Shown: one piece after another, positions 8,373 through 62,259 of the stretch
Layout of the letters: every line of letters begins with the position of its first letter
Position numbering within the stretch: the stretch's first letter is position 1
Source: Selaginella moellendorffii
Taxonomy: Eukaryota > Plantae > Lycopodiophyta
Assembly: GCF_000143415.4 (NCBI RefSeq)
Contig: NW_003314398.1
Span: forward strand, 216,005 to 280,004
Direction of reading: 5' to 3'
Length of the DNA stretch: 64,000 nt
The notes under the pieces: model-generated
What the model was told of the DNA's origin: nothing
What the model saw: only the letters and a program-made list of their open reading frames with translations
The model's database searches: none
Translations under genes and position numbers: made by a program

Positions 8373-8971
8373 CTTATTATTTCAAATGGCTCAATTGTAC
8401 CTTTGTTACTAAGATGATTTGACCACTCCATTGGCACACCATCTATTTAGTCATTGAGCCACCTCCCTTTCCAGTTCATCCTTCTCATTCCTTGGCACTT
8501 TTGGTCATGCCATTACACATTGTGTTGCTTAGCCACCTTCTCGTCAAACCACAGGTAATCTCACTATGTTGTAGCTTCCATGTTCATAGTATGCTCGCAT
8601 GGTATTGGCAATGCAAAGCCTTTCTCTACTTGTTGCAATAGTGCAAACCTTTGCTGACAATAATTGGCAAAGTTTTTCCTCTCGATGTGGACATCCTAGA
8701 AGATGCTCTCGAGTTCTAGTTGGTGTTGCTAGCTAAATATTAAATGTTCTACACATTCTAACAACAATGCTGATCATTAAGTTCATTATTGTTTTTATGT
8801 CTTGGCACCTACATTACTCAGCTGACATAGAGAGCTATAGTCAAAGGACAAGCCTTAAGAGATACACTATTAATTGATATAAGGGTTTTTGTGCACAGAT
8901 CAAGGCAGTCTAAAAGTGCCTAATTGTTTATAGGAAGCTCAGAAATTGGGAGAGAGCTCCTATTGCTTATG

Positions 8972-10851: not shown

Positions 10852-11061
10852 TGTAGTGCACCTTATCTCTCTTCCCTTAAGCCAACTAAAAAAGGGGCAA
10901 AAAGAGCCCTTAATGACTATTTTATTTCCATTTATCCAAAATTCCCATTTATCCAAAATTCCAAGGATCCACGGGTAACAGTATATTCAAATTTCATCTC
11001 ATGATCATATATGCTACACTCAGAGAAAGACCCAAGATGTACAATTTTAAATTTTAGGGGT
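10852..11061 (-). mobile_element. 3' half of a TRIM (3' LTR plus part of internal region) split by transposon copy 1
   Basis: Reverse complement matches the TRIM LTR at 55887-56048 and its internal region at ~56139-56160. Flanked by CTTAT (10847-10851), the rc of the ATAAG TSD at 32791-32795. Confidence 0.85.
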
Positions 11062-11085
11062 AAGCTCTATTTCGTTAAAGTGGGA
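11062..11085 (+). repeat. Terminal inverted repeat, copy 1 left
   Basis: AAGCTCTATTTCGTTAAAGTGGGA; exact rc at 23551-23574. Confidence 0.95.
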
Positions 11086-11492
11086 ATTGTCATTATCCCA
11101 CTTGTAAAATAAGGTTTCCAAACCTTTATATAGTATATAAATATAACAAAATTCAACTGCATTGAGGCACATGCCATTTTATTTTAAACAAGGAAATGTC
11201 TACTCAATCACTTCTCACTGCTTCACCTCTCTCTTCTCCTTGTCATCGTCGTCCAATTTCTTTCCATCCTTTTAATATTGGCTCAGTTGCTCCGAGTCTA
11301 GGTGGAGCCCAAGTCCCCATTCAATCTTTACTTTCCCCTTATTAATAAAACAACTTCGTAAACTTCCAATAACATGCTGTAACACTTCTAGTATAATGCA
11401 AATCCTCTCAAAGAATTGTCTTTTAATATTAATACAATGGCATGGAACCCCATGCCATAATAAGTTACATTTTTAAATAAATACATGCCATC

Positions 11493-14400
11493 TCAGACTG
11501 TTATTTTTTGCCTCCAACGCCTATACAATAATCTTGGAATTTCATCACTCTCCACACTATCAGGATTTAAACCCAATAGTAATGCCATCTCTTCTCTAAT
11601 ACGTCCACGCTCATGTTCAGTGGTCGAAGAACCCATCCGGTTGAGCAGATTATGGAGATGCGGATAGTGCTTGGCTAGACAATATACATGCCATAAATGA
11701 TGACTGGTGTCTGTCCGATCAAATGGCTTCTGATATACCGTTCCATCTGCCATTTGGTTGATTTCTGCAGCCACCTCCTGGACTAGCCGGTTCTCTATCA
11801 CCATCGCTTCAAGCCGTTTTGCAAGGTCCCCCAGAACATACGGTTTCTTCTCCCTAGTTTCCATACTGCAAGAGATGGGGTGCACTGCATATGTGTGCGT
11901 GTTCGCTGCAGTTTTAATCGGCGAGTCATCGATGATGAGGATTTCACTTGACCTAGCAGTCCGGTTCATCACTACAGCCTCTGCCTTGACGAAGATGGGC
12001 TTGCTACCCCTCACATGGACCATAGTCAAGCAATCCTCCTGCGTTAGGAGAAAGTCAAATGGTAATATTACTCGCGTTTGATCGTGCATCATCTGTAGCA
12101 ACGTTAATGCATTGTGGCGCATCATGGATGTCCAAACTCCCAATTGCAAATTGAACCCGGCCCTCTGTTTTAAGTGTCGCATGGTCATTATTAGATCCCG
12201 CAGTTTCTCCCGTGTGATTAATGTGAATCTGTCTCTTTTGACCAACTTGCGACCGCAGGCTTTGGAGGGTGCAGTGACATTCGAGGACGAGCCACGCTCA
12301 TGGGAGAAAAGGACACCGTTCAGATCAAAAACGATACAGTACTTTCGCCGTGACTCTGAAATGAAATGCGTTAGCATAAAAAATGGTATAAGTCAATTTT
12401 ACCATCTACAATATTAGCGAATGGTGCTCCCGATGGTCGTTCAGAGGGTTTTGGTCGAGGAAACGTGAAGGGCGGAAATACTCTCCTCTGCAATGTGGGG
12501 TCAATCGCATCCGATGGCGTGTGGGCACATGCCATTTCAGCTGTAGACTCTGGTACAACTGGCTCAACAGTGGCATGGGGTGGTTCCGATGGCGTGTGAT
12601 CACACGCCATTTCAGCTGGTGCCTCCGTTGGCAAAGTGGACATGACCGAACAGGCAGCAGGGGCGGTGTAGGGAGGTTCCAACGGCGCGTAGTCAGACGA
12701 TTGGGCACACGTTGGAAATGAGGATACGACCGGCTCGGCGGCTGGGGCGGCCTCATGCGGGTCCAATGGCGCCTGGTCACCGTCAGTTGGATACGTGGAC
12801 AAGATTGACTCAGTGGTATGGGCAGCATCAAGTGGAGCGTGGTCAGCTTGCTTGGCGTTGATATGGATAGTAGCCTCCACCAGCTCTGATGACTCTTGCA
12901 GGCAAGTAGAGTCCACTGGCGGATCCATATGCATGTCCAAATATCTCCCTTTGATTGAGATGGTATCCTCCCTACTGGCTACTAAAAACAAACTCATTAG
13001 CACATTGAATCGACTATACTGTATTTACCATCAACTACTATTGAGGAACTAGGACCGATATCACTTGGGCGCACTGCTGATTCTGAAGGATTGGACATAC
13101 GTTTCGACCCTTGCTTGGCACTATCCTTCCTCGACACTAAAGGCTAGAGTTTGTATCTTAATTCAACTGAATAATCTCTACTTACCATTTCTTCTGCGAC
13201 CTACATGGACAATGTTAGAAATGGTAAAAGGTTAGGAATGGATGTACTATTATTTACCTGATGGTTTGTCTTGTATGACCTTCCTCCGCTGCTCTTTGGC
13301 CACCTCAGGCTGGCCATCATCGTCATCATTGTCATCGTCGTTATTGTGATCGTCACCATTGTGAGGACCATCCAAGTCCTCTTCGTCCTCCTCTTCTTCG
13401 TCCTCCTCTTCTTTGTCCTCCTCTTCGTCCTTCTGCTCTTCCTGCTCATTATCTTTCTCTGGCTCCTCATCCCCCTCTTGCATTTCTTCCATAGGCTGCT
13501 CAGGCTGGATGGCTTGTTCTTCCAGGACCATCTTGGGAAAATCATCTGGCCGAGTCTCCATCTCAAAATACAAGACATCCATAGCCTGTTTTAGTGCGTG
13601 ACCTAGGACCGTATCCTCACCCGACTGTCTTAACATGGTTTCTGCACGTTCTTGCACCCTTCGAAGACGACGAGATGAGAAAAACGTGGCCCTTACTTGA
13701 AAAGCATCCCTCATCCATTGTACCTCTCCATTGAGATTGGGGAAGGGGAGTCCGCCATAGGAATCTGAGTCAGGAGGTGGTGACTGGCTACTTTCACTCA
13801 GCCCTTGATCTGCAATGAATGGCATGAGCACACACGCCATAACCGCGAGGCATTACCTATCATCTTTTCGTTGCCCTTCTTCCTTTTCGAATCAAACGCC
13901 TCTGATCCCGACAACTGTCCAACGTGCTTTCGCTTTTTATGACCACTGTCAGTTTGAGCTTGGCTGGTGCTTGCCTGTTTTGCCTTTGAAGAAGTGTCTC
14001 CTGCAAGGAATGGCATGAGACCACACGCCATTGCAAATATAATTTGTACCTCCTTTTTTCCTATTGCTTGTCTGTTTGTCCTTCTTCGACGCACCACCAG
14101 TGCGCTTTTCAGTCCTCGTGTCTGAATATTCACAACGATCTATAATCAAAATGGCGTGAGGCCTCACGTGACCTTACCTTGTGCAGGTTGTGACCTCGGC
14201 CTAACATCAGTAGCTGTTAACGCCGTTTCAGCATCTGGGGGTGGCCACGCTCCTGCATACAGAGCTTGTGAGATAACATTTAAACTTAAAGTGCGTACTC
14301 ACCAGGTTCGTAGAGAAGATACTGTTTTTCTTTGGCAACTGTAATTATATGCTCCATTGAAGTCACCTCTTCAATGGAGTTTGTCACCGCAACACACGGG

Positions 14401-16864
14401 ACACCCTTGAGTAGTGCGGCTCGAAAGAATAGTCCGCCGCAGTTGTACTCGACAACGCATTTGCCCTTGGAGTCACCCGCTATTGCGTTGAAGACCCAGC
14501 TGAGCATTTCCCATGCTGCACCTGGAGCTTTCTTTGGATTCGAAAGCTCCATAGCCGTCTTCAGTTCCTCAGGCACGGGTAAATTGACCTCCCTCAGATC
14601 AATTCGATCGGCTTTGTTGAACGAAGCTGGGAAGTCACTCCAGTCCCACTCTGCTGCAGGACCAATAACAAGGGCGACTGTGAAGATGCGGACATTCGTC
14701 GGTATCTTCTTCTTAGCCATTATCCCATGGATCTCCCGCATCTCCTTGCCTTTCAACCGAGCCTTCACCTCGTTCAAGGCCTTCCAGAACTTGTGATAGG
14801 ATTCGGAGTCGTAGATCATATAGTGGACTGAAAATTCCACCTCCGCAAGTCCCACCATTAAGTCAATGATGGAGCTGACTTCGTCTGCATGAGTGATCTC
14901 CTCGTTTGTGAAGTCCATCACACAAAAGATGTTCTTGACCTGCTCATCTCCGCGGGAAACGATGCTCCTCCACCTTTGATCCTCATCCGAATTCACGTAT
15001 ACCCGGTAAGGTTCTCGATAGGCCTCTGCTGCGGGGTCGAGCTGTTTCTGAAGCCGGCGGTCGACATCCCTCTTAATGAAATTTGGATACTGATCCAACT
15101 TCTCAGCTTTACTTTTCGTGGCATCCTGCAGCAGATCGATGAACTTGGGGGCCCCCTTCACGTACTCGTCGATGTCTTCATTTGACAAGTCCAGCTCTTC
15201 CATCATCTCTTGCGTGGTGTCGATGCTCACCCTCGCCACGGCCACTTGCTCGAAGATCCAATCCTTCAATAGCGCACGAGCTCTCAGAGTCGTGCACAAG
15301 TCCTCGTATGTCACAATATGGCCGGGAGTCATTTTGGTCTTGTTGAAGACTACCTCACCAAGTAGAAGAGCATTAGCCACTGTTAGAAGGTCGTCGTCGT
15401 CTAGAGACCGCGAGAAACGCAAGGCGTTGAGCTTCAAATCATTGGGCTTCCGGCCGTCCTCCACACCCATTGAGTTTAGCAACTCCCCGTCATGGTACCT
15501 CCTTAGCACATCTACCCATTTGTCAAAAACAACTTTTGTCGCGAGTAGAATGTTATGGATGCTGAGTGTGTCATTGACCCCCAGTGTTTTCGAGAGAAGA
15601 CTCGAGAATTCCTGCAATGGAAATGGCGTGAGGCCACATGCTATGCCACATGCAACGAGGCTTACCTGCCAGGCACTAGTTGCTAGTGCACGTCCTTGTC
15701 CTGGTTTTTGTGGCTTCTTCAGTTGAACCCAGAGCTTCCGTGTTCGTGCCAATGTCTCGTGCAGACCCGATTTGTAGCACGTTTCTTGCTTGACATTCTG
15801 CGCGTGGGAGATGTATATGATAGATCGGAGGGGCGAGTTGCCTTTTATCAGGCGGACAACTCTTGTCTTGAAGACTTTCTTCACCTCCTTGCCCACCATA
15901 ATATCCACAACTATCTGTTGCATCGCCAAGCTAGAATGCTGCTCGGAGACGGCATAGAACCGGATGTTCTGATCGTCCAACACCTTCCTATTGATCAAGT
16001 CTGGAAACCTCGTCTCGCCCTTCATTGTTCGGTAGTAGGGGATCATGTCTGCGATGTCGGGTGTTACTGGACTTGCCAGCATCTTCTGCTTCAGTTTCTC
16101 CACCCACTCATCAGATACTAGCCTGTGGTTGTATTTGCTTTGGATGTCGATACGGCTCATGTCGATTGTATATACTTTGTTGGAATAGTAACAAGTACTA
16201 TTATCTGTGACGATTTTTGCTGCCTCTTCTTGCTCTTTCTGCTCTTTGCGGCTCTTCTTTTTGGTGGGTGTAGTGTTCGAACCCGAGGCAATGGCATCAC
16301 CGAGTAGCTTCTTTTTTGGAGCAGCAGAGTCGGACGTCGGCTTGAGCTTGACCACCCTTTTCTGCTTCGGGGTAGTTTCCAGATCGACCCCCTTCCCCTT
16401 CGCTTCGTGAACTGGAGGCACTCTCAACAGCTCAATGTTGGAATATAGTTTTTGAACATCGCCGTAGGTGAGGTCCGTGGATTCCATGTGATCTTCATAG
16501 ACCCGCACGTCTTTGAAATTGTGGGCCTCCTGGACAACCTCTCCCTAGCTCCCTCTAGGAATTCCTCATAGCCGCTGCCCCCCTCCGGGAAGCCGCTAGG
16601 ATGTGCAAGGTGGATCTTAAAGGCGGATGCTGTCTCTACCACAAGTGCCAGTCCATATTCTTGCATGGAACTGCATGGATCGTCTGTCACTTGGATGAGG
16701 ATCCCCATGCATTCTTTTCTCCCACCATCTGTGTTGTACAGCATCAGATCCTCGCCTTCCATCCCGAAAGTCCAACTGGTGAGCTCCTCCCCCTTCTCTG
16801 CATCCACATTGACAGTGGCTGGAAGAAGAACGCAATTCCTTGCCTGTTCAAAAATGCACAACAA
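11493..16864 (-). CDS. Transposon cargo gene, copy 1: spliced multidomain protein (ParB/Srx-like, MTase-like, acidic and Pro-rich linker, FCP1-like HAD phosphatase); 1-nt frameshift near 16508; true start uncertain
   Basis: Exons ~16843-15666, 15611-14303, 14252-14178, 14121-14050, 14000-13857, 13809-13258, 13200-13186, 13136-13029, 12981-12403 and 12355-11493 join in frame via GT-AG introns of 47-57 nt. The last exon has FCP1/NIF-type motifs IVFDLNGVL, GVWTS, KPIFVK and IIDDSPIK. Confidence 0.8.
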
Positions 16865-18309
16865 TTAGAGCTGACAGATGAAAAGCTAGCAGCTGGAAAT
16901 AACGTGAGGCCACACGCCATTCACCACTGCATCAGATGTCTTGAGGCTGCATCCTAAGATGGCATGAGGCTACACGCCATCTGTAACCGGACTGCACTCG
17001 AGAGCCCAATCGGTGCATGCCAATGTTGCTACTGAATGGCATGTGGCCTCATGCCATTTTCTACTTGGCCTAAAAGACTTACCATTTAAAGCCGAATGGA
17101 GGCGTGATAATCGAGGCCAGACTTGCTGGCGAATGTGCACTATGTGTGCAGCGGATCGTAGCAGCAAGGCTACTCTGCCACTTACAGTTGGAGAGTGGCG
17201 CTGAAATCTCCCGGGATGCCAAGTGGGCTGCGTGTGGGTGGCAGAGTGGGCGGCGGAGTTGGCGGCGAAGTTAGAAACTGGGTGTGTCTTGAAGTGGACG
17301 CCGATGCACACGAGCGCGATGCGAGCGCGAGTGTGATGCAAGCGCGAGTGGACGCCGATGCACACGAGAAACCTGTAGAGAAGGTAGATGAGCGCGAATG
17401 TGAGCGTGATCGTGAGTGGGAGCGCGATGCGAGCGCGAGTACGAAGCAAAATGCAAAACCTAACCTCACACGCGCGAAATGTCACGACGGTTGGTAATCC
17501 CGCCATGTCATCATTCCTCGGACTTGGGCGCCACCATTAATTTCTGGATCGTCGCGCGCATGCATGCACGTGAAATCCAAAAGAAATCCACAACGTCATC
17601 ATTCCTCAGATTGCATGCACGTGAAATCCAAAAGAAAGATCATGATTGGGATATCATTTAATACCCTTGCTATATTTATACCATGCATGATTGGATATTC
17701 CAAAGCATCTTGTATTTCCAAAAATGCCAGATGTTCAGCTAAATAAAGAATGGTATACAAAAAATCCCAAAAAATGCACCAAAAAATGCTCGGTGCCATC
17801 TGGCGTTATCTCTTGAATGGCGTGGGGCCGCATGCCATTTTCAGGGGCACATAGGAGTATATTCCTAGAATATTCTGACGCGCGAGATTTTTTTGAGTTT
17901 TTTGGAGATCCAACCGTTAGATCGCAACTAGATTTTACAGAATGGTATAGAATGTCTTTCTTGATGACCCTGCAAAGAAGCATCTCGATCGGACACCACA
18001 TGAGACCACACAAGCCTTACAATGTTTCAGGGCCATTTGCTATAGATCCGACCGTTATTTTGCTCCAAGATTTTACAGTTTGGTGTGCATTGACCTTTCC
18101 ATCGACACTGCAAAGGGACATCACAATCAGATGTTTGATCACAAGAAACTAACTTCACTAACTCTAGTTTCACCAAGATCTACGTAAGGAGTTATGAAAT
18201 GAAAGGACCCTCTCTATTGAAATGTGTTTATGGTCCTAGGGGCATTGTGACATATCAAAGGATTTTGCATCAAGTTCTGTATTTGCATGTTTATCAAGCT
18301 ACTGAATTG

Positions 18310-18336
18310 CTAAACCCTAAACCCTAAACCCTAAAC
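18310..18336 (+). repeat. Short interstitial plant telomere repeat (CCCTAAA)n / telo-box array
   Basis: CTAAACCCTAAACCCTAAACCCTAAAC; one unit longer in copy 2 at 38746-38779. Confidence 0.85.
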
Positions 18337-19311
18337 ATGTGGCAAATGCTGCATGAAGAAAGATGCCCTTTCTGGGCAAATGCTGTAAGAGGCAGATGCC
18401 GAGCAGATGTATCTCAGGCTAGCGAAGGGGACAAACGAAAGCTAGCTATAAACATGATGGGATGCAAATAGATTACTAGGCTAGTCCTGCAAAAATCAAA
18501 AACCATAATTGAAAACATTGAAAATGCAAAAAGAAAGGTTTATAATATTTTTGAATTTTAAGCAACCAAAGGAATGTTAGGGCATGTGTTTGTAAGTTTA
18601 AAAATGCCTCAACCACTTAAATTCCCAAGTAAATAAAGCTGTTTCTATTTTTGGTACAGGTAAACTTTATAGCGTGTGGGCTCATGCAATTTTGAACCCA
18701 AAAATGCACCTAAAAATGCTCGAGTAGCATTATTCTTTGAATGGCGTGTGGCCTTATATTGCCATAAATGGACGTACACACACAGCATAATTATTCCTTT
18801 ACACGGCGAATAATCTTGGCGTGGATCGCTGATATGGCATGGCAAAGTTCGAATCACTGACATGGCACAACTGGATCAAGGCAAGGACATGATGTGACAT
18901 GGTGTTGCGAGCGGCGCTACGAGTAGTTGCGGTGTTGCGAGCGGCACTGTCTTTGGTGTGGCTACCGCTTCCTCTTGATATTCGGCACTTGTGCTTCCTG
19001 GTATGTTCACCATGGAATGGCTTAGGACCACATTTAGAAATGGCATGAGGCCACATGCCATCTTGGGCCCTTGCAATTTCATGGCTAGCGTATTGTCATG
19101 TATGTTTTTACTTGCCTACAGCTGTGTGTATATCAAGATGGCATGAGGCCTCATGCCAATTTTGTGAATGCGAAATTTCACGTGGGTGTCAATAGCATGT
19201 TTGAATAATGGCATGTGGCCTCATGCTATTGAGGTTGTTTGGTATGTTATGATTTAGGCCATTCTCCAATCATTTTTTGTATGGTCTTAACTTCTTTTTT
19301 GCACTTTCAGA

Positions 19312-22300
19312 ATGGCCTTCACGGTTGGGGAAAAGGTTTACATTTTGAATGGTGGGAAAAGAGTTGCAAAAGGGACCCTTGTGTCTATGGATCGGAACTT
19401 TGTTATACACTGTCAAAGGCTTGGGGAAGGCAATGCTGCTGTATCAATAGAGACTGTCTTCGATGGGAATGTGGTTGCTATTGAACGAGGAGAGATGGTC
19501 GTCGGGGTAAATGTTGTTGTTGCCTTGAAAAATCTTCAGAAGAAAGCAGATGTTGGGGACAGCGCAAGTGCGACGCATGTTCCCTCCGTGGATCTTAAGA
19601 ACCGTGCTACATGGATTCAGGCAAAAGTGTTTCTAAACAACCCCGAGGGGGAGGTGGTAGCTGAGGGCTTAGCCACAGTTGTCGATCCAAGAGATGCGGT
19701 TGCTAATCAAGAATTGGGCTGGGATGATATTGGAGTTGCGATTTTAGAGGTTGTTGACACAGAAGAAAACAGTCTGACTATTGGAAGCATTGTGCGGTGG
19801 AAATTGAGGCACTTAGTGTTTGAGAATGTGAAGGATTCACAATCAAACACCACTACAACTGATGACAGAACATCTCTTCATGGGAAAAGAAAGTACACCT
19901 TCCTAAAGCGCAGCCAAAGGGATCTGAGCAACGAACCGAAAAGGCAGAAAATGGCGATGGAGGTTCAAATGGTCTCGACAGTTGCTTGTTGCAAGAGGAG
20001 GTGCTGTCAACATGCTGATTGGGATGCTATTGAAGAGGAGAAAGCAAGATACAAGACATTGTCCTGGAAGGCAGCTCGCAATTTTGTGTATGAGGCATTA
20101 CGGTCATCTGTTGATGCTTCAGAACATCAGGTGGGGGGCATGGTCTTCCAGAGGGGTTTGGTCTGCAAGAAGGCATGGAGAATCATTTATGGAGTCCCTC
20201 GAACCACATTCTACACAATCAAAACTGAGTTCGAGGAACAAAGGGTTCAACAGGCAGTCCATGGGAACGACGGTACGCACAAAACCAGGGGTCATGTTGT
20301 ATATGGAGAGGCAATCTTCAAGAGGTTTGTCGAGACATGTAGCGAGCAGCAACCACATAAAACCCGCCTCTTGGAAGATGGAACACGAGACACCCAACGA
20401 GTTCTCCCTTCCATGTATACCAAGGGGGCCATATTGGAAGATGTGAATCGGGAACTCCAGAGTAATGGCTACAGGAAGCTGAGCCAATCTAGATTTAGTA
20501 GATTGTGGAGCAACAGGTTCAAGGATGTGAGTATAGGAAAGTACTCCAGCTTTTCAAAGTGTGACGAGTGCACTGCTATCAAAATGGCTTTGTCGAAGAA
20601 TTCTTGCAGCGCTCAAGAGCGAGAGACGTTGGTTAGAAGGCGGCTCGACCACAACATCGAGCAGAGAAGCTGCAGGACTGCATATTATCATAACAGGATT
20701 CTCTCCATGGAGAGACCTGACTCTTACCTCTGCATCATCCACGACAAAATGGACCAGAAAAAGACGTGCTTACCTCGACTCAATCCTGCCCCCAAGGCAA
20801 TCTCTTCATCCATGCAGCTGCCTGTGTCTCTGTTTGGCATAATCGCTCATGGGCATGGTGCCCAGAACTATGGGAACTTCTTTGTACCTCTATGTGCAAA
20901 CATGATGATTGCGTCCCTAGCAAAACACTTAAGGTCTCTGCAAAGTGCGCAGACTGAGCTGAACGGCCAACCCTTGCATAAGGCCCTTGTCAATCGAACC
21001 CCATACAGGGTTCAGCTGGAGGAGGAGCAAAGGCTTGCAGTATCGCGTGGGGCCCCATGCCATCCCAGTGAATATGTTGGCCGTCAGATTGTAGGGTTAT
21101 CACGTGAGGCCTCATGCCATTCCGACGAGGCTGGTCGCCCGGTGAATGCACAGCCTCATCCAAACGAAGCAGAATCTCAAGGAAGTTCTTGCGGCCGATG
21201 TGGCCTTCCACCCCATCTTCTGCTCCAAACAGACAATGCTGGCAGTGAGAACAAAAACATGTACGTCTTCGCGTACTTGGCGATGCTTGTTGCCAAAGGC
21301 ATATTTGAAACGGTTACACTTGGCTTTCTCATGGTTGGGCACACTCATGAAGACGTCGATGCCATGTTCAGTCACCTGGCAGAGTCCCTCCGGCGATCCA
21401 ATGTCCTCACCCTCCCACAACTCTACGATGAATTCCAAAATTGCATCAAAGGCACTGTTGAAGCTGCACTTCTGACAGAGGTTCCAGACTTTAAGGGGTT
21501 TGTAAGAGGCTACATCAGGGATGGATCCGAAACGCTGATTGGCCACTCCAAGCCTCTTCAGTTTCATTTCAGCATGCGTGACAGTGCTCCAATGATGAGG
21601 TACAAGATGAGAGAATGGGACACAGTGTGGCTGCCAGTGGACGGCATTGAACTCTTCAAGAGAGATCCCATAACTGGGGAACCTATGATTCCTCAGGGTT
21701 CCCCACGGCCGATGCACCCGGATGGACTCAAAGACCAGGAAAGTATAGTGGCCGGGATTAGACAGCATATTGCCTTCTGGAAGAGGGGGTTGGTGTTTGG
21801 TGGAGAATCCTATTTTCAGAGGTGCAAGCCTTTGCTCGAATACTGGGAGAAGATTATATCTGCTATCCAAAATGGGCCGGTTGTATATGAAGAATTGGAA
21901 GAGTCCTTTTGGCCAGAACCCAGAGCACCAGATAGTAGCGGAACAATGTCCTCTGGAAATGCAGTGACAGATAACGATGTTGAGGATCACTATTGTGGGC
22001 CGAGGAACAAGAAGCCGGATTCAGCATTCAATCCAGTACAGGTCTGCAAAGGAATGGTCGTGCTTGTCAGACCCAGTAATAAAAAACAAATGATATGGGT
22101 GGGGCGCTGCATCACTGATGCAGAGGAGGACGCGGAAACTAACTCCTTCAATGTAACTGTGGAGTGGTTCAAGCCAAGTTCCGGATATACGAAGGATTGC
22201 CTAGAAAAGAGATAGGTGCTGAATCCAAGGGATCCCAGCATGAGCATATCGGTGGATAATGTTGTGCATGGTTGGATGCGGAAGCAGAGTGCCACCATCA

Positions 22301-22441
22301 CCTTGCCAGACCATGCAAGAGATGCAGCAAGAGCATTCATAACTCGGGTTCAAGGTGAGATTCATTAATATTCCTTTACAAAGTTTCTAATGTATTTTAT
22401 TTCAAGGTGAACAATCCGAATCTGAATCAGAGGAGGCTTGA
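19312..22441 (+). CDS. Sola-like DDD transposase, copy 1 (967-aa ORF to TAG at 22213-22215; frame continues to 22354, intron 22355-22406, stop at 22441)
   Basis: CDEC..H zinc motif and the triad motifs IIHDKMDQKKT.LP (20734+), LQTDNAGSENKN (D at 21232) and FLMVGHTHEDVD (21337-21360), resembling Sola-type DN..NKN / GH....D cores. Located inside TIRs. Confidence 0.85.
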
Positions 22442-22656
22442 TATAGTGTGTGAGGTAAAACAAAGATGATGTGACATATGCATTTACCAATCACACGTGC
22501 ATAAATCTAATAATATGGCGTGTGGCCCATATTAATGGCACATAAACCCATATTGTGGGCTTACGTGCTTTATGTACCATCATTCCCTTGCAGCGTGTGT
22601 GTTGGTTTCCTTTTATAACACAACGAACTCCATATTTTAGGGTGAAGAGCGTTCTC

Positions 22657-22914
22657 ATGGCAAGCACAAAATTTGTAAGTGAGGCAGAAAAGGAGACGGA
22701 GAAGGAGATAGGTGAAGATGTAGAATATATAAGTCTTCCAAACTTCCCGTACTATACTCCAGGTGATCATTTTTCTGAACAAACGGCAACATTAACAACT
22801 ATCGAGAACGCCCCAGTAACGTCAGAGACAACAATCCAAAGCAAAACAACTGACCCGGAGAAGGATGATAGTACCGCTGAGAGTACCAAAAAGGAGGTGT
22901 CCACTAGCGCTTAG
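22657..22914 (+). CDS. Small Ser/Thr/Glu-rich ORF of unknown status inside the transposon
   Basis: ATG 22657 to TAG 22914; open in both copies (33712-33969 minus); nearby splice-like sites; no recognisable domain. Confidence 0.25.
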   Translation: MASTKFVSEAEKETEKEIGEDVEYISLPNFPYYTPGDHFSEQTATLTTIENAPVTSETTIQSKTTDPEKDDSTAESTKKEVSTSA

Positions 22915-23550
22915 GCTTATAATGGCGTGTGCCCTCATGCCATTTACTTGATCACCAAATACCTTTTTCCCTTTGCACTAGTATATCTTAATACCGGTCT
23001 GAGAAATAGAATGGCATGTGCCCTCAGGCCTTTTACTAAATCACCTTTGAAAGAAATGCAAGCCTCTATGTTGTAAAAAAAAGGTACTAGAGAAATTCCT
23101 TAATAATATGAATGTTATTTAGTTTCATGAAAATACACTAAGGGTCAAATGAGTTAAATGACTTCTCCAGACTAGCAATGCCTCTTGCTACACCTTCACA
23201 ATTAGATTCATTAGAAAAAGATAACATTGAATAATATCTAAATGTTCTCACCATTAAGTTATATGTCTGGCTAATAGGAATGACGTTCATCTTGGAAAGC
23301 TCACCACACGCTCAATGAACAAACAAATAGTGTGTGCGCGCATGCCATCGCTCTTCTTTAGCTTCAGATTCGGCTTGTTCACCTTGACAATGAGATTTAT
23401 TATACAACTAGATGGACTCAGTCTGGACACAAAGCCACCGCGCTAGTCACCATGCCCCAGATATGTCTAGCCCCTGGACAAAAAACATATAATTTCACGT
23501 CATTTTCAAATACTTGAAAATTTGTACCTAGTCCCATTTTACTGAATAAA

Positions 23551-23574
23551 TCCCACTTTAACGAAATAGAGCTT
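23551..23574 (-). repeat. Terminal inverted repeat, copy 1 right
   Basis: TCCCACTTTAACGAAATAGAGCTT. Confidence 0.95.
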
Positions 23575-29301: not shown

Positions 29302-29790
29302 CATATATATTACATCTTCATCAACACCTTACACTAGGAATCTAAAATAGACAATCACATACACTATACAAGCCTTAGTATTGTTGAATCATATAAGACT
29401 TTTGGAGCCAACTAGAATTTCCAAGATTATTGATGTTTATTCTCTATCAATAATATAAACTTATTATAATTTATATAATTAATAAAAATAACATATTTTT
29501 TATTTGATATACTTAAGAGTGTTTTTTTTCACAATATTGCTCATAATACTTTGTATCTCTATTTTTGTTTTTACCATCTCAAAAAATATTTCATGGTAGT
29601 TTTTCAGGTGCATGGTGTTGTAGTGTATCACAAGAGCATATGTACTATTATACTGATCGTCAACTTGTTTTCACTAAAGCCAATAAACATAAAAAGCATT
29701 TCTTGAATGTCATAAAATTACAATTTTCTAAAATAAGTAGGAGAGCATTCTTTTTCGTTATACCCTCTATCATTGTTTTTATCTCCAACT

Positions 29791-32795: not shown

Positions 32796-33051
32796 TGTAA
32801 CGCATATGATCATGGAATAAGATTTGGATATATTGTTACTGTGAATCTTTGGAACTTTAGAGGATAAATGGGGATAAAATAGCCACTAAAGGCTTTTTTA
32901 TCAAGCAATTGCCCCTTTTCTAGTTGGCTTAAGGGGAGAGAGATAAAGTGTGTTATATGTGGTATCGGAACAAATGGTACAGGTTCGATTCCTATTGATT
33001 AGTGGCTAATTAAAAATATAATATACCCTTGAGCAAAGTATATTTCTACCC
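32796..33051 (+). mobile_element. 5' half of the split TRIM (5' LTR, PBS, internal region)
   Basis: Matches 55887-56142; PBS TGGTATCGGA; preceded by TSD ATAAG; ends in ACCC at the TIR. Confidence 0.85.
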
Positions 33052-34184
33052 AAGCTCTATTTCGTTAAAGTGGGATTTATTCAGTAAAATGGGACTAGGT
33101 ACAAATTTTCAAGTATTTGAAAATGACGTGAAATTATATGTTTTTTGTCCAGGGGCTAGACATATCTGGGGCATGGTGACTAGCGCGGTGACCTTATGTC
33201 CAGACTGAGTCCATCTAGTTGTATAATAAATCTCATTGTCAAGGTGAACAAGCCGAATCTGAAGCTAAAGAAGAGCGATGGCATGCGCGCACACACTATT
33301 TGTTTGTTCATTGAGCGTGTGGTGAGCTTTCCAAGATGAACATCATTCCTATTAGCCAGACATATAACTTAATGGTGAGAACATTTAGATATTATTCAAT
33401 GTTATCTTTTTCTAACGAATCTAATTGTGAAGGTGTAGCAAGAGGCATTGCTAGTCTGGAGAAGTCATTTAACTCATTTGACCCTTAGTGTATTTTCATG
33501 AAACTAAATAACATTCATATTATTAAGGAATTTCTCTAGTACCTTTTTTTTACGACATAGAGGCTTGCATTTCTTTCAAAGGTGATTTAGTAAAAGGCCT
33601 GAGGGCACATGCCATTCTATTTCTCAGACCGGTATTAAGATATACTAGTGCAAAGGGAAAAAGGTATTTGGTGATCAAGTAAATGGCATGAGGGCACACG
33701 CCATTATAAGCCTAAGCGCTAGTGGACACCTCCTTTTTGGTACTCTCAGCGGTACTATCATCCTTCTCCGGGTCAGTTGTTTTGCTTTGGATTGTTGTCT
33801 CTGACGTTACTGGGGCGTTCTCGATAGTTGTTAATGTTGCCGTTTGTTCAGAAAAATGATCACCTGGAGTATAGTACGGGGAGTTTGGAAGACTTATATA
33901 TTCTACATCTTCACCTATCTCCTTCTCCGTCTCCTTTTCTGCCTCACTTACAGATTTTGTGCTTGCCATGAGAACGCTCTTCACCCTAAAATATGGAGTT
34001 CGTTGTGTTATAAAAGGAAACCAACACACACGCTGCAAGGGAATGATGGTACATAAAGCACGTAAGCCCACAATATGGGTTTATGTGCCATTAATATGGG
34101 CCACACGCCATATTATTAGATTTATGCACGTGTGATTGGTAAATGCATATGTCACATCATCTTTGTTTTACCTCACACACTATA

Positions 34185-37100
34185 TCAAGCCTCCTCTGAT
34201 TCAGATTCGGATTGTTCACCTTGAAATAAAATACATTAGAAACTTTGTAAAGGAATATTAATGAATCTCACCTTGAACCCGAGTTATGAATGCTCTTGCT
34301 GCATCTCTTGCATGGTCTGGCAAGGTGATGGTGGCACTCTGCTTCCGCATCCAACCATGCACAACATTATCCACCGATATGCTCATGCTGGGATCCCTTG
34401 GATTCAGCACCTATCTCTTTTCTAGGCAATCCTTCGTATATCCGGAACTTGGCTTGAACCACTCCACAGTTACATTGAAGGAGTTAGTTTCCGCGTCCTC
34501 CTCTGCATCAGTGATGCANNNNNNNNNNNNNNNNNNNNNNNNNNNNNNNNNNNNNNNNNNNNNNNNNNNNNNNNNNNNNNNNNNNNNNNNNNNNNNNNNN
34601 NNNNNNNNNNNNNNNNNNNNNNNNNNNNNNNNNNNNNNNNNNNNNNNNNNNNNNNNNNNNNNNNNNNNNNNNNNNNNNNNNNNNNNNNNNNNNNNNNNNN
34701 NNNNNNNNNCTGGCCAAAAGGACTCTTCCAATTCTTCATATACAACCGGCCCATTTTGGATAGCAGATATAATCTTCTCCCAGTATTCGAGCAAAGGCTT
34801 GCACCTCTGAAAATAGGATTCTCCACCAAACACCAACCCCCTCTTCCAGAAGGCAATATGCTGTCTAATCCCGGCCACTATACTTTCCTGGTCTTTGAGT
34901 CCATCCGGGTGCATCGGCCGTGGGGAACCCTGAGGAATCATAGGTTCCCCAGTTATGGGATCTCTCTTGAAGAGTTCAATGCCGTCCACTGGTAGCCACA
35001 CTGTGTCCCATTCTCTCATCTTGTACCTCATCACTGGAGCACCGTCACACATGCTGAAATGAAACTGAAGAGGCTTGGAGTGGCCAATCAGCGTTTCGGA
35101 TCCATCCCTGATGTAGCCTCTTACAAACCCCTTAAAGTCTGGAACCTCTGTCAGAAGTGCAGCTTCAACAGTGCCTTTGATGCAATTTTGGAATTCATCG
35201 TAGAGTTGTGGGAGGGTGAGGACATTGGATCGCTGGAGGGACTCTGCCAGGTGACTGAACATGGCATCGACGTCTTCATGAGTGTGCCCAACCATGAGAA
35301 AGCCAAGTGTAACCGTTTCAAATATGCCTTTGGCAACAAGCATCGCCAAGTACGCGAAGACGTACATGTTTTTGTTCTCACTGCCAGCATTGTCTGTTTG
35401 GAGCAGAAGATGGGGTGGAAGGCCACATCGGCCGCAAGAACTTCCTTGAGATTCTGCTTCGTTTGGATGAGGCTGTGCATTCACCGGGCGACCAGCCTCG
35501 TCGGAATGGCATGAGGCCTCACGTGATAACCCTACAATCTGACGGCCAACATATTCACTGGGATGGCATGGGGCCCCACGCGATACTGCAAGCCTTTGCT
35601 CCTCCTCCAGCTGAACCCTGTATGGGGTTCGATCGACAAGGGCCTTATGCAAGGGTTGGCCGTTCAGCTCAGTCTGCGCACTTTGCAGAGACCTTAAGTG
35701 TTTTGCTAGGGACGCAATCATCATGTTTGCACCCCCGCCACCCCATAGAGGTACAAAGAAGTTCCCATAGTTCTGGGCACCATGCCCATGAGCGATTATG
35801 CCAAACAGAGACACAGGCAGCTGCATGGATGAAGAGATTGCCTTGGGGGCAGGATTGAGTCGAGGTAAGCACGTCTTTTTCTGGTCCATTTTGTCGTGGA
35901 TGATGCAGAGGTAAGAGTCAGGTCTCTCCATGGAGAGAATCCTGTTATGATAATATGCAGTTCTGCAGCTTCTCTCCTCGATGTTGTGGTCGAGCCGCCT
36001 TCTAACCAACGTCTCTTGCTCTTGAGCGCTGCAAGAATTCTTCGACAAAGCCATTTTGATAGCAGTGCACTCGTCACACTTTGAAAAGCTGGAGTACTTT
36101 CCTATACTCACATCCCTGAACCTGTTGCTCCACAATCTACTAAATCTAGATTGGCTCAGCTTCCTGTAGCCATTACTCTGGAGTTCCCGATTCACATCTT
36201 CCAATATGGCCCCCTTGGTATACATGGAAGGGAGAACTCGTTGGGTGTCTCGTGTTCCATCTTCCAAGAGGCGGGTTTTATGTGGTTGCTGCTCGCTACA
36301 TGTCTCGACAAACCTCTTGAAGATTGCCTCTCCATATACAACATGACCCCTGGTTTTGTGCGTACCGTCGTTCCCATGGACTGCCTGTTGAACCCTTTGT
36401 TCCTCGAACTCAGTTTTGATTCTGTAGAATGTGCTTCGAGGGACTCCATAAATGATTCTCCATGCCTTCATGCAGACCAAACCCCTTTGGAAGACCATGC
36501 CCCCCACCTGATGTTCTGAAGCATCAACAGATGACCGTAATGCCTCATACACAAAATTGCGAGCTGCCTTCCAGGACAATGTCTTGTATCTTGCTCTCTC
36601 CTCTTCAATAGCATCCCAATCAGCATGTTGACAGCACCTCCTCTTGCAACAAGCAACTGTCGAGACCATTTGAACCTCCATCGCCATTTTCTGCCTTTTC
36701 GGTTCGTTGCTCAGATCCCTTTGGCTGCGCTTTAGGAAGGTGTACTTTCTTTTCCCATGAAGAGATGTTCTGTCATCAGTTGTAGTGGTGTTTGATTGTG
36801 AATCCTTCACATTCTCAAACACTAAGTGCCTCAATTTCCACCGCACAATGCTTCCAATAGTCAGACTGTTTTCTTCTGTGTCAACAACCTCTAAAATCGC
36901 AACTCCAATATCATCCCAGCCCAATTCTTGATTAGCAACCGCATCTCTTGGATCGACAACTGTGGCTAAGCCCTCAGCTACCACCTCCCCCTCGGGGTTG
37001 TTTAGAAACACTTTTGCCTGAATCCATGTAGCACGGTTCTTAAGATCCACGGAGGGAACATGCGTCGCACTTGCGCTGTCCCCAACATCTGCTTTCTTCT

Positions 37101-37323
37101 GAAGATTTTTCAAGGCAACAACAACATTTACCCCAACGACCATCTCTCGTTCAATAGCAACCACATTCCCATCGAAGACAGTCTCTACTGATACAGCAGC
37201 ATTGCCTTCCCCAAGCCTTTCACAGTGTATAACAAAGTTCCGATCCATAGACACAAGGGTCCCTTTTGCAACTCTCTTCCCACCATTCAAAATGTAAACC
37301 TTTTCCCCAACCCTGAAGGCCAT
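34185..37323 (-). CDS. Sola-like DDD transposase, copy 2 (970-aa ORF 37323-34411, partly in N gap)
   Basis: Same motifs as copy 1; retains VPLWGGGGANM where copy 1 has a 12-nt deletion; same TAG at 34411-34413. Confidence 0.85.
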
Positions 37324-38745
37324 TCTGAAAGTGCAGAAAAGAAGTTAAGACCATACAAAAAATGATTGGAGAATGGCCTAAATCATAACATACCAAACAA
37401 CCTCAATAGCATGAGGCCACATGCCATTATTCAAACATGCTATTGACACCCACGTGAAATTTCGCATTCACAAAATTGGCATGAGGCCTCATGCCATCTT
37501 GATATACACACAGCTGCAGGCAAGTAAAAACATACATGACAATACGCTAGCCATGAAATTGCAAGGGCCCAAGATGGCATGTGGCCTCATGCCATTTCTA
37601 AATGTGGTCCTAAGCCATTCCATGGTGAACATACCAGGAAGCACAAGTGCCGAATATCAAGAGGAAGCGGTAGCCACACCAAAGACAGTGCCGCTCGCAA
37701 CACCGCAACTACTCGTAGCGCCGCTCGCAACACCGCAACTGCTCGTAGCGCCGCTCGCACAAACTGCCACTCGCATAAACTGCCGCTCGCAATGGCGCTC
37801 GCAATGCCGCAACCGCTCGTAGACGCATAAACCACAGCCCACAACGCCGCTTACACAAGCAGCGCTCACTGCGCTCAGCGGAACCAAGAACACGGCGCAC
37901 AAAAATGATAGACCTAGGAATGAGTTCGAGAATTCAAAAATAACACACGCTTGAACGTCACATCAAATCCTCTGACAAACCAGATCTTATGATTCCTCTG
38001 ACAAATTTCAAACTGAGTAGCTTCTAGACTTTGCTGTCGGAGGTTGAACTTTGTCACATCATGTCCTTGCCTCGATCCAGCTGTGCCATGTCAGTGATTC
38101 GAACTTTGCCATGCCATGTCAGCGATCCGCGCCAAGATTATTCGCCGTGTAAAGGAATAATTACGCTGTGTGTGTACGTCCATTTATGGCAATATAAGGC
38201 CACACGCCATTCAAAGAATAATGCTCGACATAAGGCCACACGCCATTCAAAGAATAATGCTAGTCGAGCATTTTTTGGTGCATTTTTGGGTTCAAAATGC
38301 ATTGAGNNNNNNNNNNNNNNNNNNNNNNNNNNNNNNNNNNNNNNNNNNNNNNNNNNNNNNNNNNNNNNNNNNNNNNNNNNNNNNNNNNNNNNNNNNNNNN
38401 NNNNNNCTATAAAGTTTACCTGTACCAAAAATAGAAACAACTTTATTTACTTGGGAATTTAAGTGGTTGAGGCATTTTTAAACTTACAAACACATGCCCT
38501 ACTTACATTCCTTTGGTTGCCTAAAATTCAAAAATACTATAAACCTTTCTTTTTGCATTTTCAATGTTTTCAATTATGGTTTTTGATTTTCGTAGGACCA
38601 GCCTAGTAATCTATTTGCATCCCGTCATGTTTATAGCTAGCTTTCGTTTGTCCCCTTCGCTAGCTTGAGATACATCTGCTCGGCATCTGCCTCTTACAGC
38701 ATTTGCCCAGAAAGGGCATCTTTCTTCACGCAGCATTTGCCACAT

Positions 38746-38779
38746 GTTTAGGGTTTAGGGTTTAGGGTTTAGGGTTTAG
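38746..38779 (-). repeat. (TTTAGGG)n interstitial telomere-like repeat
   Basis: GTTTAGGGTTTAGGGTTTAGGGTTTAGGGTTTAG. Confidence 0.85.
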
Positions 38780-40574
38780 CAATTCAGTAGCTTGATAAAC
38801 ATGCAAATACAGAACTTGATGCAAAATCCTTTGATATGTCACAATGCCCCTAGGACCATAAACACATTTCAATAGAGAGGGTCTTTTCATTTCATAACTC
38901 CTTACGTAGATCTTGGTGAAACCAGAGTTAGTGAAGTTAGTTTCTTGTGATCCCGCATCTGATTGTGATGTCCCTTTGCAGTTTCGATGGAAAGGTCAAT
39001 GCACACCAAACTGTAAAATCTTGGAGCAAAATAACGGTCGGATCTATGGCAAATGCCCCTGAAACATTGTAAGGCTCGTGTGGTCTCATGTGGTGTCCGA
39101 TCGAGATGCTTCTTTGCAGGGTCATCAAGAAAGACATTGTATACCATTCTGTAAAATCTAGTTGCGATCTAACGGTTGGATCTCCAGAAAACTCAAAAAA
39201 ATCTCGCGCGTGTCAGAATATCCTAGGAATATACTCCTATGTGCCCCTGAAAATGGCATGCGGCCCCACACCATTCAAGAGATAATGCCAGATGACGCCG
39301 AGAATTTTTTGGTGCATTTTTTGGGTTCAAAATTGCATGAGCCCACACGCTATAAAGTTTATCTTTGCCAAATAGAGAAAAGTTTATCTGTGTCATGTGA
39401 GGTAGTTACAGTCCTTTGTGCTCGGCATCTGCCTCTTGCAGCATTTGCACTGAAAGGGAATTTTTCTCCATTCAGCATTTGGCCCTGAAAATGGCATGCG
39501 CCCACACGCCATTCAAGGAATAACGCCACAGGACGCCTGGATTTTTGGGTTTAAAATGTTTAGGGTTTTTTGGGTTTTTTCAAAATATTTTGGGTCCAAC
39601 GTTTTTTGGGTTTCTTTGGTTCAAAATTGCATGAGCCCACACGCTATAATATTGATTTAAGAGAAAAATAGAAACAGATAGAATTTCTTTATTTAGCTGA
39701 ACATCTGCCATTTTTGGAAATACAAGATGCTTTGGAATATCCAATCATGCATGGTATAAATATAGCGAGGGTATTAAATGATATCCCAATCATGATCTTT
39801 CTTTTGGATTTCGCGTGCATGCAGTCCGAGGAATGATGACGTTGCGGATTTCTTTTGGATTTTGCGTGCTTGCATGCGCGCGGCAATCCAGAAATTAATG
39901 GTGGCGCCCAAGTCCGAGGAATGATGACGTGGCGGGATTACCAACCGTTGTGACATTTCGCGCGTGTGAGGTTAGGTTTTGCATTTTGCTTTGTACTCGC
40001 GCTCGCACACTCGCGCTCCCGCTCGCATCGCGCTCCCACTCGCGATCACGCTCACTTCTCTACAGGTTTCTCGTGTGCATCGGCGTCCACTCGCGCTTGC
40101 ATCACACTCGCGCTCGCATCGCGCTCGTGTGCATCGGCATCCACTTCAAGACACACCCAGTTTGTAACTTCGCCGCCAACTCCGCCGCCCACTCCACCAC
40201 CCACACGCAGCCCACTTGGCATCCCGGGAGATTTCAGCACCACTCTCCAACTGTAAGTGGCAGAGTAGCCTTGCTGCTACGATCCGCTGCACACACAGTG
40301 CACATTCGCCAGCGAGTCCGGCCTCGATTGTCACGGCCTCCATTCGGCTTCAAATGGTAAGTCTTTTAGACGAAGTAGAAAATGGCATGAGGCCACATGC
40401 CATTCAGTAGCAACATTGGCATGCACCGATTGGGCTCTCGAGTGCAGTCCGGTTACAGATGGCGTGTAGCCTCACGCCATCTTAGGATGCAGCCTCAAGA
40501 CATCTGATGCAGTGGTGAATGGCGTGTGGCCTCACGTTATTTCCAGCTGCTAGCTTTTCATCTGTCAGCTCTAA

Positions 40575-43500
40575 TTGTTGTGCATTTTTGAACAGGCGAG
40601 GAATTGCGTTCTTCTTCCAGCCACTGTCAATGTGGATGCAGAGAAGGGGGAGGAGCTCACCAGTTGGACTTTCGGGATGGAAGGCGAGGATCTGATGCTG
40701 TACAACACAGATGGTGGGAGAAAAGAATGCATGGGGATCCTCATCCAAGTGACAGACACTCCATGCAGTTCCATGCAAGAATATGGACTGGCACTTGTGG
40801 TAGAGACAGCGTCCGCCTTCAAGATCCACCTTGCACATCCTAGCGGCTTCCCGGAGGGGGGCAGCGGCTATGAGGAATTCCTAGAGGGAGCTAGGGAGAG
40901 GTTGTCCAGGAGGCCCACAATTTCAAAGACGCTGCGGGTCTATGAAGATCACATGGAATCCACGGACCTCACCTACGGCGATGTTCAAAAACTATATTCC
41001 AACATTGAGCCGTTGAGAGTGCCTCCAGTTTGCGAAGCGAAGGGGAAGGGGGTCGATCTGGAAACTACCCCGAAGCAGAAAAGGGTGGTCAAGCTCAAGC
41101 CGACGTCCGACTCTGCTGCTCCAAAAAAGAAGCTACTCGGTGATGCCATTGCCTCGGGTTCGAACACTACACCCACCAAAAAGAAGAGCCGCAAAGAGCA
41201 GAAAGAGCAAGAAGAGGCAGCAAAAATCGTCGCAGATAATAGTACTTGTTACTATTCCAACAAAGTATATACAATCGACGTGAGCCGTATCGAGATCCAA
41301 AGCAAATACAACCACAGGCTAGTATCTGATGAGTGGGTGGAGAAACTGAAGCAGAAGATGCTGGCAAGTCCAGTAACACCCGACATCGCAGACGTGATCC
41401 CCTACTACCGAACAATGAAGGGCGAGATGAGGTTTCCAGACTTGATCAATAGGAAGGTGTTGGACGATCAGAACATCCGGTTCTATGCCGTCTCCGGGCA
41501 GCATTCTAGCTTGGTGATGCAACAGATAGTTGTGGATATTATGGTGGGCGAGGAGGTGAAGAAAGTCTTCAAGACAAGAGTTGTCCGCCTGATAAAAGGC
41601 AACTCGCCCCTCCGATCTATCATATACATCTCCCACGCGCAGAATGTCAAGCAAGAAACGTGCTACAAATCGGGTCTGCACGAGACATTGGCACGAACAC
41701 GGAAGCTCTGGGTTCAACTGAAGAAGCCACAAAAACCAGGACAAGGACGTGCACTAGCAACTAGCGCCTGGCAGGTAAGCCTCGTTGCATGTGGCATAGC
41801 ATGTGGCCTCACGCCATTTCCATTGCAGGAATTCTCGAGTCTTCTCTCGAAAACACTGGGGGTCAATGACACACTCAGCATCCATAACATTCTACTCGCG
41901 ACAAAAGTTGTTTTTGACAAATGGGTAGATGTGCTAAGGAGGTACCATGACGGGGAGTTGCTAAACTCAATGGGTGTGGAGGACGGCCGGAAGCCCAATG
42001 ATTTGAAGCTCAACGCCTTGCGTTTCTCGCGGTCTCTAGACGACGACGACCTTCTGACAGTGGCTAATGCTCTTCTACTTGGTGAGGTAGTCTTCAACAA
42101 GACCAAAATGACTCCCGGCCATATTGTGACATACGAGGACTTGTGCACGACTCTGAGAGCTCGTGCGCTATTGAAGGATTGGATCTTCGAGCAAGTGGCC
42201 GTGGCGAGGGTGAGCATCGACACCACGCAAGAGATGATGGAAGAGCTGGACTTGTCAAATGAAGACATCGACGAGTACGTGAAGGGGGCCCCCAAGTTCA
42301 TCGATCTGCTGCAGGATGCCACGAAAAGTAAAGCTGAGAAGTTGGATCAGTATCCAAATTTCATTAAGAGGGATGTCGACCGCCGGCTTCAGAAACAGCT
42401 CGACCCCGCAGCAGAGGCCTATCGAGAACCTTACCGGGTATACGTGAATTCGGATGAGGATCAAAGGTGGAGGAGCATCGTTTCCCGCGGAGATGAGCAG
42501 GTCAAGAACATCTTTTGTGTGATGGACTTCACAAACGAGGAGATCACTCATGCAGACGAAGTCAGCTCCATCATTGACTTAATGGTGGGACTTGCGGAGG
42601 TGGAATTTTCAGTCCACTATATGATCTACGACTCCGAATCCTATCACAAGTTCTGGAAGGCCTTGAACGAGGTGAAGGCTCGGTTGAAAGGCAAGGAGAT
42701 GCGGGAGATCCATGGGATAATGGCTAAGAAGAAGATACCGACGAATGTCCGCATCTTCACAGTCGCCCTTGTTATTGGTCCTGCAGCAGAGTGGGACTGG
42801 AGTGACTTCCCAGCTTCGTTCAACAAAGCCGATCGAATGATCTGAGGGAGGTCAATTTACCCGTGCCTGAGGAACGAAGACNNNNNNNNNNNNNNNNNNN
42901 NNNNNNNNNNNNNNNNNNNNNNNNNNNNNNNNNNNNNNNNNNNNNNNNNNNNNNNNNNNNNNNNNNNNNNNNNNNNNNNNNNNNNNNNNNNNNNNNNNNN
43001 NNNNNNNNNNNNNNNNNNNNNNNNNNNNNNNNNNNNNNNNNNNNNNNNNNNNNNNNNNNNNNNNNNNNNNNNNNNNNNNNNNNNNNNNNNNNNNNNNNNN
43101 NNNNNNNNNNNNNNNNNNNNNNNNNNNNNNNNNNNNNNNNNNNNNNNNNNNNNNNNNNNNNNNNNNNNNNNNNNNNNNNNNNNNNNNNNNNNNNNNNNNN
43201 NNNNNNNNNNNNNNNNNNNNNNNNNNNNNNNNNNNNNNNNNNNNNNNNNNNNNNNNNNNNNNNNNNNNNNNNNNNNNNNNNNNNNNNNNNNNNNNNNNNN
43301 NNNNNNNNNNNNNNNNNNNNNNNNNNNNNNNNNNNNNNNNGTGGCGCTTCGAAGAAGGACAAACAGACAAGCAATAGGAAAAAAGGAGGTACAAATGATA
43401 TTGGCAATGGCGTGTGGTCTCAGCGCATTCCTGGCAGGAGACACTTCTTCAAAGGCAATACAGGCAAGCACCAGCCAAGCTCAAACTGACAGTGGTCATA

Positions 43501-45927: not shown

Positions 45928-46358
45928 GATGGCATGTATTTATTTAAAAATGTAACTTATTATGGCATGGGGTTCCATGCCATTGTATTAATATTAAAAG
46001 ACGATTCTTTGAGAGGATTTGCATTATACTAGAAGTGTTACAGCATGTTATTGGAAGTCTACGAAGTTGTTTTATTAATAAGGGGAAAGTAAAGATTGAA
46101 TGGGGACTTGGGCTCCACCTAGACTCGGAGCAACTGAGCCAATATTAAAAGGATGGAAAGAAATTGGACGACGATGACAAGGAGAAGAGAGAGGTGAAGC
46201 AGTGAGAAGTGATTGAGTAGACATTTCCTTATTTAAAATAAAATGGCATGTGCCTCAATGCAGTTGAATTTTGTTATATTTATATACTATATAAAGGTTT
46301 GGAAACCTTATTTTACAAGTGGGATAATGACAATTCCCACTTTAACGAAATAGAGCTT

Positions 46359-59680: not shown

Positions 59681-59689
59681 GAACGCATC

Positions 59690-62212: not shown

Positions 62213-62259
62213 TTCATTATCAGGAATACATGCATTTTACCTTTGGGTCAACTTAGAGG

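Follow-up and report, generated by a model that had tools for sequence, protein, structure and literature searches.

The window analysed here is a 64,000-nucleotide stretch of the lycophyte Selaginella moellendorffii (contig NW_003314398.1, positions 216,005 to 280,004 of the forward strand), which contains two inverted copies, 95–99% identical by self-BLAST, of a DNA transposon. A transposase open reading frame (ORF) and an accessory gene are arranged head to head in the element, which also carries a dispersed 22-bp palindrome. Our main subject is the accessory protein, in whose N-terminal part a sequence-only reading had seen a ParB/Sulfiredoxin (Srx)-like domain. The features are as follows, in window positions:

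11062..23574, copy 1 of a terminal inverted repeat (TIR) DNA transposon, Sola1-like, 12.5 kb (from the TIRs, the inverted second copy and the flanks)
33052..46358, copy 2 of the transposon, inverted, with N gaps (self-BLAST, termini, flanks)
19312..22215, plus strand, transposase ORF (PF25273 DUF7869, E 1.1e-41)
11493..17085, minus strand, accessory gene, predicted 11 exons, ~1,630 aa (ten GT-AG introns, one open frame)
15790..16175, minus strand, ParB/Srx-like N-terminal domain, copy 1 (profile alignments; ESM Atlas on a fern homologue)
41265..41650, plus strand, copy 2 counterpart of that domain, reading SGQHS at 41493 (self-BLAST, copy comparison)
15015..15767, minus strand, all-helical middle region, candidate DNA-binding part (holds a predicted 54-nt intron, 15612–15665)
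14301..15014, minus strand, predicted beta-class N4/N6 DNA methyltransferase fold
11895..12341, minus strand, NIF/FCP1-like haloacid dehalogenase (HAD) phosphatase domain, DLNGV ... IIDDSP, last predicted exon (PF03031, E 5.1e-6)
11156..23348, scattered sites of a 22-bp palindrome with consensus ATGGCRTGNGGCCNCAYGCCAT (copy 1: 21 sites, ≤5 mismatches)

The TIR arms of copy 1 (11062–11088 and 23548–23574) are 27 nt long and 96% complementary, as expected of Sola1 elements. Read in element orientation, the 4-bp flanks are GGGT left and TCTT right for copy 1, and TCTT left and GGGT right for copy 2 (11058–11061, 23575–23578, 33048–33051 and 46359–46362). The pairs are thus swapped between the inverted copies, as if the copies had recombined and inverted the intervening 9.5 kb, or the assembly were wrong here. 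Paired in this way, GGGT and TCTT give the 4-bp target site duplication (TSD) of Sola1, based on two insertions only. The Sola1-like label rests on this TSD, on a parallel in the brown alga Ectocarpus described below, and on the transposase motifs, which we take to be linked to Sola1; the only Pfam match is PF25273 DUF7869, on which no literature was found. These motifs (HDKMD at 20740, TDNAG at 21229 and GHTHEDVD at 21337) are three acidic motifs of the kind usual in DDE/D transposases. The N-terminal part of the transposase is long and uncharacterised, and the copy 1 gene has an in-frame 12-bp deletion at 20894. In sequencing run X1, 57,051 contigs with many variants fell on the element, which fits a high-copy family, although depth here gives no copy number. 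The spacer between the two genes includes a short plant telomere-like run of CTAAACC units (18309–18335), in a region also found in copy 2 by self-alignment.

The accessory gene is predicted to have ten GT-AG introns (a first of 239 nt, then nine of 47–57 nt), which leave a frame open from 16487 to the stop; the ParB-like peptide lies within the minus-strand ORF 14286–16544. Contigs from run X20, whose RNA nature is only guessed, run through intron 1 unspliced. The predicted product consists of a ParB-like domain, a helical region, a beta-class methylase fold and a NIF-like domain, in that order. The fusion to the NIF-like domain is supported by the annotated fern proteins P0018 and P0020, which have the same domain order, and it is also seen in the fern homologue P0007. 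In copy 1, a 1-bp deletion near 16507 shifts the frame and stops translation at residue 140, so that this copy is unable to make the whole protein; the missing base is present in copy 2 and in all four sequencing runs. Copy 2 also seems to carry a frameshift, next to an N gap.

On the minus strand of copy 1, the N-terminal domain starts with VYTID at 16175 and continues with NHR (16130–16122), the Box II-like SEQHS (15947–15933) and SHAQN (15809–15795), which carries a Box III-like Asn. The sequence-only reading had contrasted SEQHS in copy 1 with SGQHS at 41493 in copy 2, and both the positions and the sequences proved correct. One base, at 15943, accounts for the G>E change. The Gly codon accounts for 678,973 of 679,178 in depth in run X1 and is also found in single contigs of runs X4 and X5 (X20 has no coverage there); Gly is the family state, and Glu is private to copy 1. 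Replacement of the canonical G.HR Arg by Ser, noticed in the same reading, holds well beyond this copy: Ser or Thr stands there in all six aligned rows (GQHS, GQHT, GLHS), which represent three distinct groups, and no other base is listed at this codon in the four runs. The loss is therefore family-wide and no copy defect. According to PMC12704722, the ParB folds tested no longer bind nucleotides once this Box II Arg is lost. The motif itself is more than a chance string, since the independent homologue P0004 (matched over query residues 7–174 with E 1.5e-5) has DGQHT in its place and the fern homologues have SGLHS, and since all three sequences of alignment A2 share R(21), G(81), H(83) and N(130).

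Profile alignments, ESM Atlas neighbours and the position before a beta-class methylase together make it very probable that this is a divergent domain of ParB/Srx type. For the alignments, three comparison sets were picked by motif from viral contigs: set A, Pfam-confirmed phage ParB_N (106 of 120 loci usable; all four members tested match ParB_N, three above the cut-off); set B (24 of 120 usable; two of five tested match GmrSD_N, below the cut-off); and set C, of GERRWRA type (74 of 80 usable). Global alignment scored 25.0 against set B (best of 25 block shuffles, 12.3) and 12.0 against set C (best of 15 shuffles, 5.1). Both alignments line up the N.R helix, then the strand-G.H-helix and, further on, an Asn with the EN of Box III; ~20 residues are inserted ahead of Box II. 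The Box I helix, the strand-GxxR-helix of Box II and Box III thus follow one another in the expected order against sets B and C, not against A, with weak probabilities. An ESM Atlas search with residues 245–430 of fern homologue P0018 gave 30 matches, comprising 20 unnamed eukaryotic clusters, nine DUF3723 proteins and one ParB_N protein (0.92). The nearest named neighbours of P0018 were the fungal DUF3723 proteins (0.95, 9 of 30), which suggests that DUF3723 may have a ParB-like N-terminus; no literature joining DUF3723 with ParB was found.

Several results weigh against the assignment. The choice of sets A–C by motif favours a match. Against set A the global score was 2.7, below the best shuffle (9.9), and the HH probabilities of the global alignments were only 30% and 1%. 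A local hhalign match to set B (71% probability, 23 columns) fell to 0.7% once the motif was masked. The single ParB_N match in the Atlas was one in 30, ranked 26th, covered 127 of 256 features and was obtained with a homologue. The region had no significant match in Pfam, PHROGs or PDB sequences, and the ParB_N and related Pfam profiles matched neither the window ORFs nor the isolated domain up to E 10, nor the homologues. Structure prediction of residues 1–140 gave a predicted local distance difference test score (pLDDT) of 23–38 without an alignment and 25–39 with a nine-row alignment (AlphaFold single-sequence mean, 32), and the model was unusable. Fold searches listed no ParB/Srx structures, but spanned residues 390–625 only, the N-terminal model being unusable. 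Matches to a DnaB intein (E 0.19) and to G-alpha (E 0.03–0.07) were treated as chance.

The sequence-only reading had also expected a helix-turn-helix (HTH)-like part behind the ParB-like domain. ParB/Srx is still the best reading of the N-terminus, and the helical region behind it is confidently predicted (pLDDT 73–90, approximately residues 211–380), but its HTH-like character found no support: against 74 ParB central regions it scored 15.8 in local alignment (shuffled maximum, 15.9) and 2.5 in global alignment, which also counts against the reading of the whole protein given below.

The predicted model of the methylase region shows the permuted Rossmann fold of PF01555, with motif IV (DFTN, 14915–14904) ahead of motif I (EYNCGG, 14450–14433). 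The catalytic (D/S)PP(Y/F) of motif IV is absent from all five domains aligned, which read DFTN, DAAH, DSAN, DLRR and DATT; the Asp is kept in every one, and the residues after it are not conserved. The D-x-F-x-G-x-G of the phage set is partly kept in motif I (EYNCGG, DVFACG, DINTGG, EYGCGG), and the acidic residue and a Gly are present in the four domains that reach it. The window protein has no acidic residue after the second strand binding S-adenosylmethionine (SAM). The fold has likely lost catalysis. The NIF-like domain matches PF03031 above the cut-off (26.7 bits versus 21.8). DxDxT is the catalytic motif of FCP/SCP-type HAD phosphatases; it is not matched by DLNGV in the window protein or by DLNGL in the fern homologues.

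A phmmer search of 1.84 billion representative sequences gave seven matches, of which five are real: P0001 from Selaginella (E 1.4e-11), P0007 from Adiantum, P0003, P0004 and P0006. P0002 and P0005 were dropped as repeat-driven matches. A profile of three sequences gave 14 matches, including 12 additional fern or unnamed proteins, and word-indexed searches with the window ORF and alignment A3 found none. One of the Adiantum proteins (P0021, L7F22_038295) has an extra N-terminal part (residues ~1–345) that we take to resemble a hAT-type transposase fragment; either the gene model is a fusion, or this protein comes from another kind of carrier. No prokaryotic or viral homologue was found in the phmmer library, the viral contigs or GenBank phages, and a metagenome match (L001, 30 residues, E 8e-5) was rejected because no open frame of the bacterial-looking contig matched there. 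The suggestion of a prokaryotic or phage origin can accordingly be kept in part: the architecture makes such an ultimate ancestry plausible, but as no prokaryotic sequence homologue was found, the data do not establish that land plants received the gene directly and recently.

The palindrome occurs at 19 sites per copy with ≤3 mismatches, and at 21 (copy 1) and 23 (copy 2) with ≤5. Outside the element copies there are none in 36,905 bases, while 20 simulated sequences gave 0–1; as the consensus was drawn from the element's own sites, the outside count is the informative figure. Although 62% of the element is coding, only four of the 21 copy 1 sites are in coding sequence, with seven in predicted introns of the accessory gene and ten in intergenic or untranslated regions. 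The sites span the whole 12.5 kb, are not clustered at the ends, and those listed do not overlap the TIR arms. The four coding palindromes (12514–12611 and 21042–21121) read through as peptides; two of them belong to the transposase, where they follow the first acidic motif and precede the second.

We consider it about an even bet (roughly 50%) that a dimer of the accessory protein binds the palindromes of its own element and contributes to the element's continued activity, with neither nucleotide hydrolysis nor methyl transfer taking place. The protein would dimerise through its ParB-like domain, and its helical region would bind the palindromes, so that it coats its own element; once bound, it might counter host silencing by shielding the DNA or by recruiting host factors through its inactive enzyme folds. 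A bolder form of this reading, which we regard as tentative and rather improbable, is that transposons of seed-free land plants possess a ParB/parS-like self-recognition system, in which a prokaryote-derived ParB-methylase, now without its nucleotide switch and catalytic motif but with a phosphatase-like domain added, coats ~20 palindromes across its element, many of them in its own introns, keeping the element transcribed.

The state of the two copies weighs against this reading. Differences between them are biased to CG (43 of 924 CG, 17 of 931 CHG and 25 of 3,972 CHH cytosines), and it is there that transitions gather. This pattern points to methylation by the host, so that any protection is incomplete. 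Both look methylated and decaying. Between 16487 and 14604 they differ by ten replacement and two silent changes, a further point against the reading.

The strongest competitor, to which we give somewhat better than a one-in-five chance, is that the transposase or a host factor binds the palindromes and that the accessory protein has another task, e.g. helping transposition by binding DNA non-specifically. Cut-and-paste elements commonly have internal repeats to which transposition proteins bind, the transposase has a long uncharacterised N-terminal part, and the accessory protein has no demonstrated HTH, its comparison with ParB central domains being at shuffle level. Sites spread over the entire element, off the TIR arms and seven of them within accessory-gene introns, tell against it. 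Less likely still, the protein would be active as an unusual amino-methyltransferase which, once brought to the palindromes, places N4-methylcytosine (4mC) or N6-methyladenine (6mA) on the element that encodes it, in the way suggested for Ectocarpus. The whole beta-class fold, the motif IV Asp (5/5) and the motif I acidic residue and Gly (4/4) are kept, and elements of Ectocarpus and Bostrychia, as far as the sources available describe them, provide precedent; the loss of PPY/F in five of five domains, with unconserved residues after the Asp, and the acidic residue missing after the second SAM-binding strand tell against it. That the N-terminal domain is unrelated to ParB, its G.H motif a chance resemblance in a divergent alpha/beta domain, would agree with the absence of a library match, the masked-motif score at noise, the failure against set A and the unusable model, but it is the least probable of the three in view of three motifs whose order and spacing agree with two of the sets, the Atlas neighbours, and a place before a beta-class methylase that is also the ParB place in phage fusions and in the Ectocarpus protein.

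The known systems were compared through the excerpts available of the papers cited. The closest is Sola1-1_Ec32 of Ectocarpus (PMC12477816), a giant Sola1-type element of 21.5 kb with a 4-bp TSD and a 282-bp imperfect TIR, whose opposite-strand gene encodes a 1,104-aa protein with ParB-like and N4/N6 methylase domains, described as a predicted methylase, for which self-binding and self-modification were proposed. The window element shares the 4-bp TSD and an accessory gene of this kind opposite the transposase, and differs, by description only, in its 12.5-kb length, 27-nt TIR, land-plant host and ~1,630-aa protein, which lacks DPPY, has an extra NIF-like domain and is accompanied by dispersed 22-bp palindromes. 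In Bostrychia, Plavaka elements have the accessory genes PAG2/PAG3, and ParB-fused accessory genes lie beside inverted repeats (bioRxiv 10.1101/2025.02.11.637652). These elements too combine a transposon-borne ParB-like domain near inverted repeats with a transposon-borne N6 methylase, but belong to EnSpm/Plavaka, fuse ParB to a 2-oxoglutarate (2OG) oxygenase and the methylase to SET in separate genes, and have their repeats in tandem arrays. Phage fusions of ParB_N (PF02195) and N6_N4_Mtase (PF01555) have the same order, ParB then beta-class methylase (PMC12704722, PMC4738411); they keep GHGR and DPPY/SPPY, are ~400 aa long, have no sequence-level match to the plant family, and lack the ~250 extra helical residues between the two domains of the plant protein. 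CcrM, M.MboIIA, M.RsrI, M.PvuII and rotifer N4CMT (PMC8885841) share the fold and the permuted motif order, IV before I, but carry (D/S)PP(Y/F) and are only 7–13% identical to the window protein. As a functional analogue, VANC of Arabidopsis VANDAL elements counters silencing and binds a short motif that is enriched in the non-coding DNA of the element encoding it (PMC5735166). VANC belongs to MuDR elements and recognises non-palindromic motifs of 8–9 bases in tandem repeats, with no ParB or methylase domain mentioned in the excerpt; its function is experimental, while that of the window accessory protein is inferred.

A ParB and methylase accessory gene on a Sola1 transposon is thus already known from Ectocarpus; the window adds a land-plant version that has likely lost catalysis, is fused to a phosphatase-like domain and comes with a well-defined candidate site for binding. 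A literature search combining ParB, Sola, methyltransferase and land plants returned the Ectocarpus paper only, and none was found on ParB and transposase in Selaginella. No land-plant case was found in a survey that is incomplete; Iyer 2011, which the Ectocarpus paper cites for green algal cases, may mention some. The available part of PMC4738411 lists ParB-linked methylases in algae and fungi, and SELMODRAFT_409495 and SELMODRAFT_416075 are absent from its supplement text.

Elsewhere, the window contains chromovirus-type Ty3/Gypsy fragments with reverse transcriptase, RNase H, gag, SH3 and chromo domains (58282–62236), and a second repeat family of at least five copies with 77–93% identity (8971–10671, 26436–27558, 47599–48107, 54736–55801 and 63010–63965). 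Self-alignment revealed short tandem-like repeats at 27881–30141, and very AT-rich, low-complexity DNA at 48001–49000 (GC 0.118) adjoins an N gap.

For ParB-fused accessory proteins, the algal papers, in the parts available, propose a role that was untested there. The Selaginella element offers an exact candidate site, a 22-bp palindrome present at least 19 times per copy and nowhere outside, which makes the binding question directly testable. With relatives in Selaginella and Adiantum, the design extends to land plants, where catalysis has likely been lost. A long palindrome-specific protein that alters plant chromatin would, if true, be a possible epigenome tool, and ParB/parS-like self-recognition would then give plants a second sequence-specific way of countering silencing, evolved independently of VANC.
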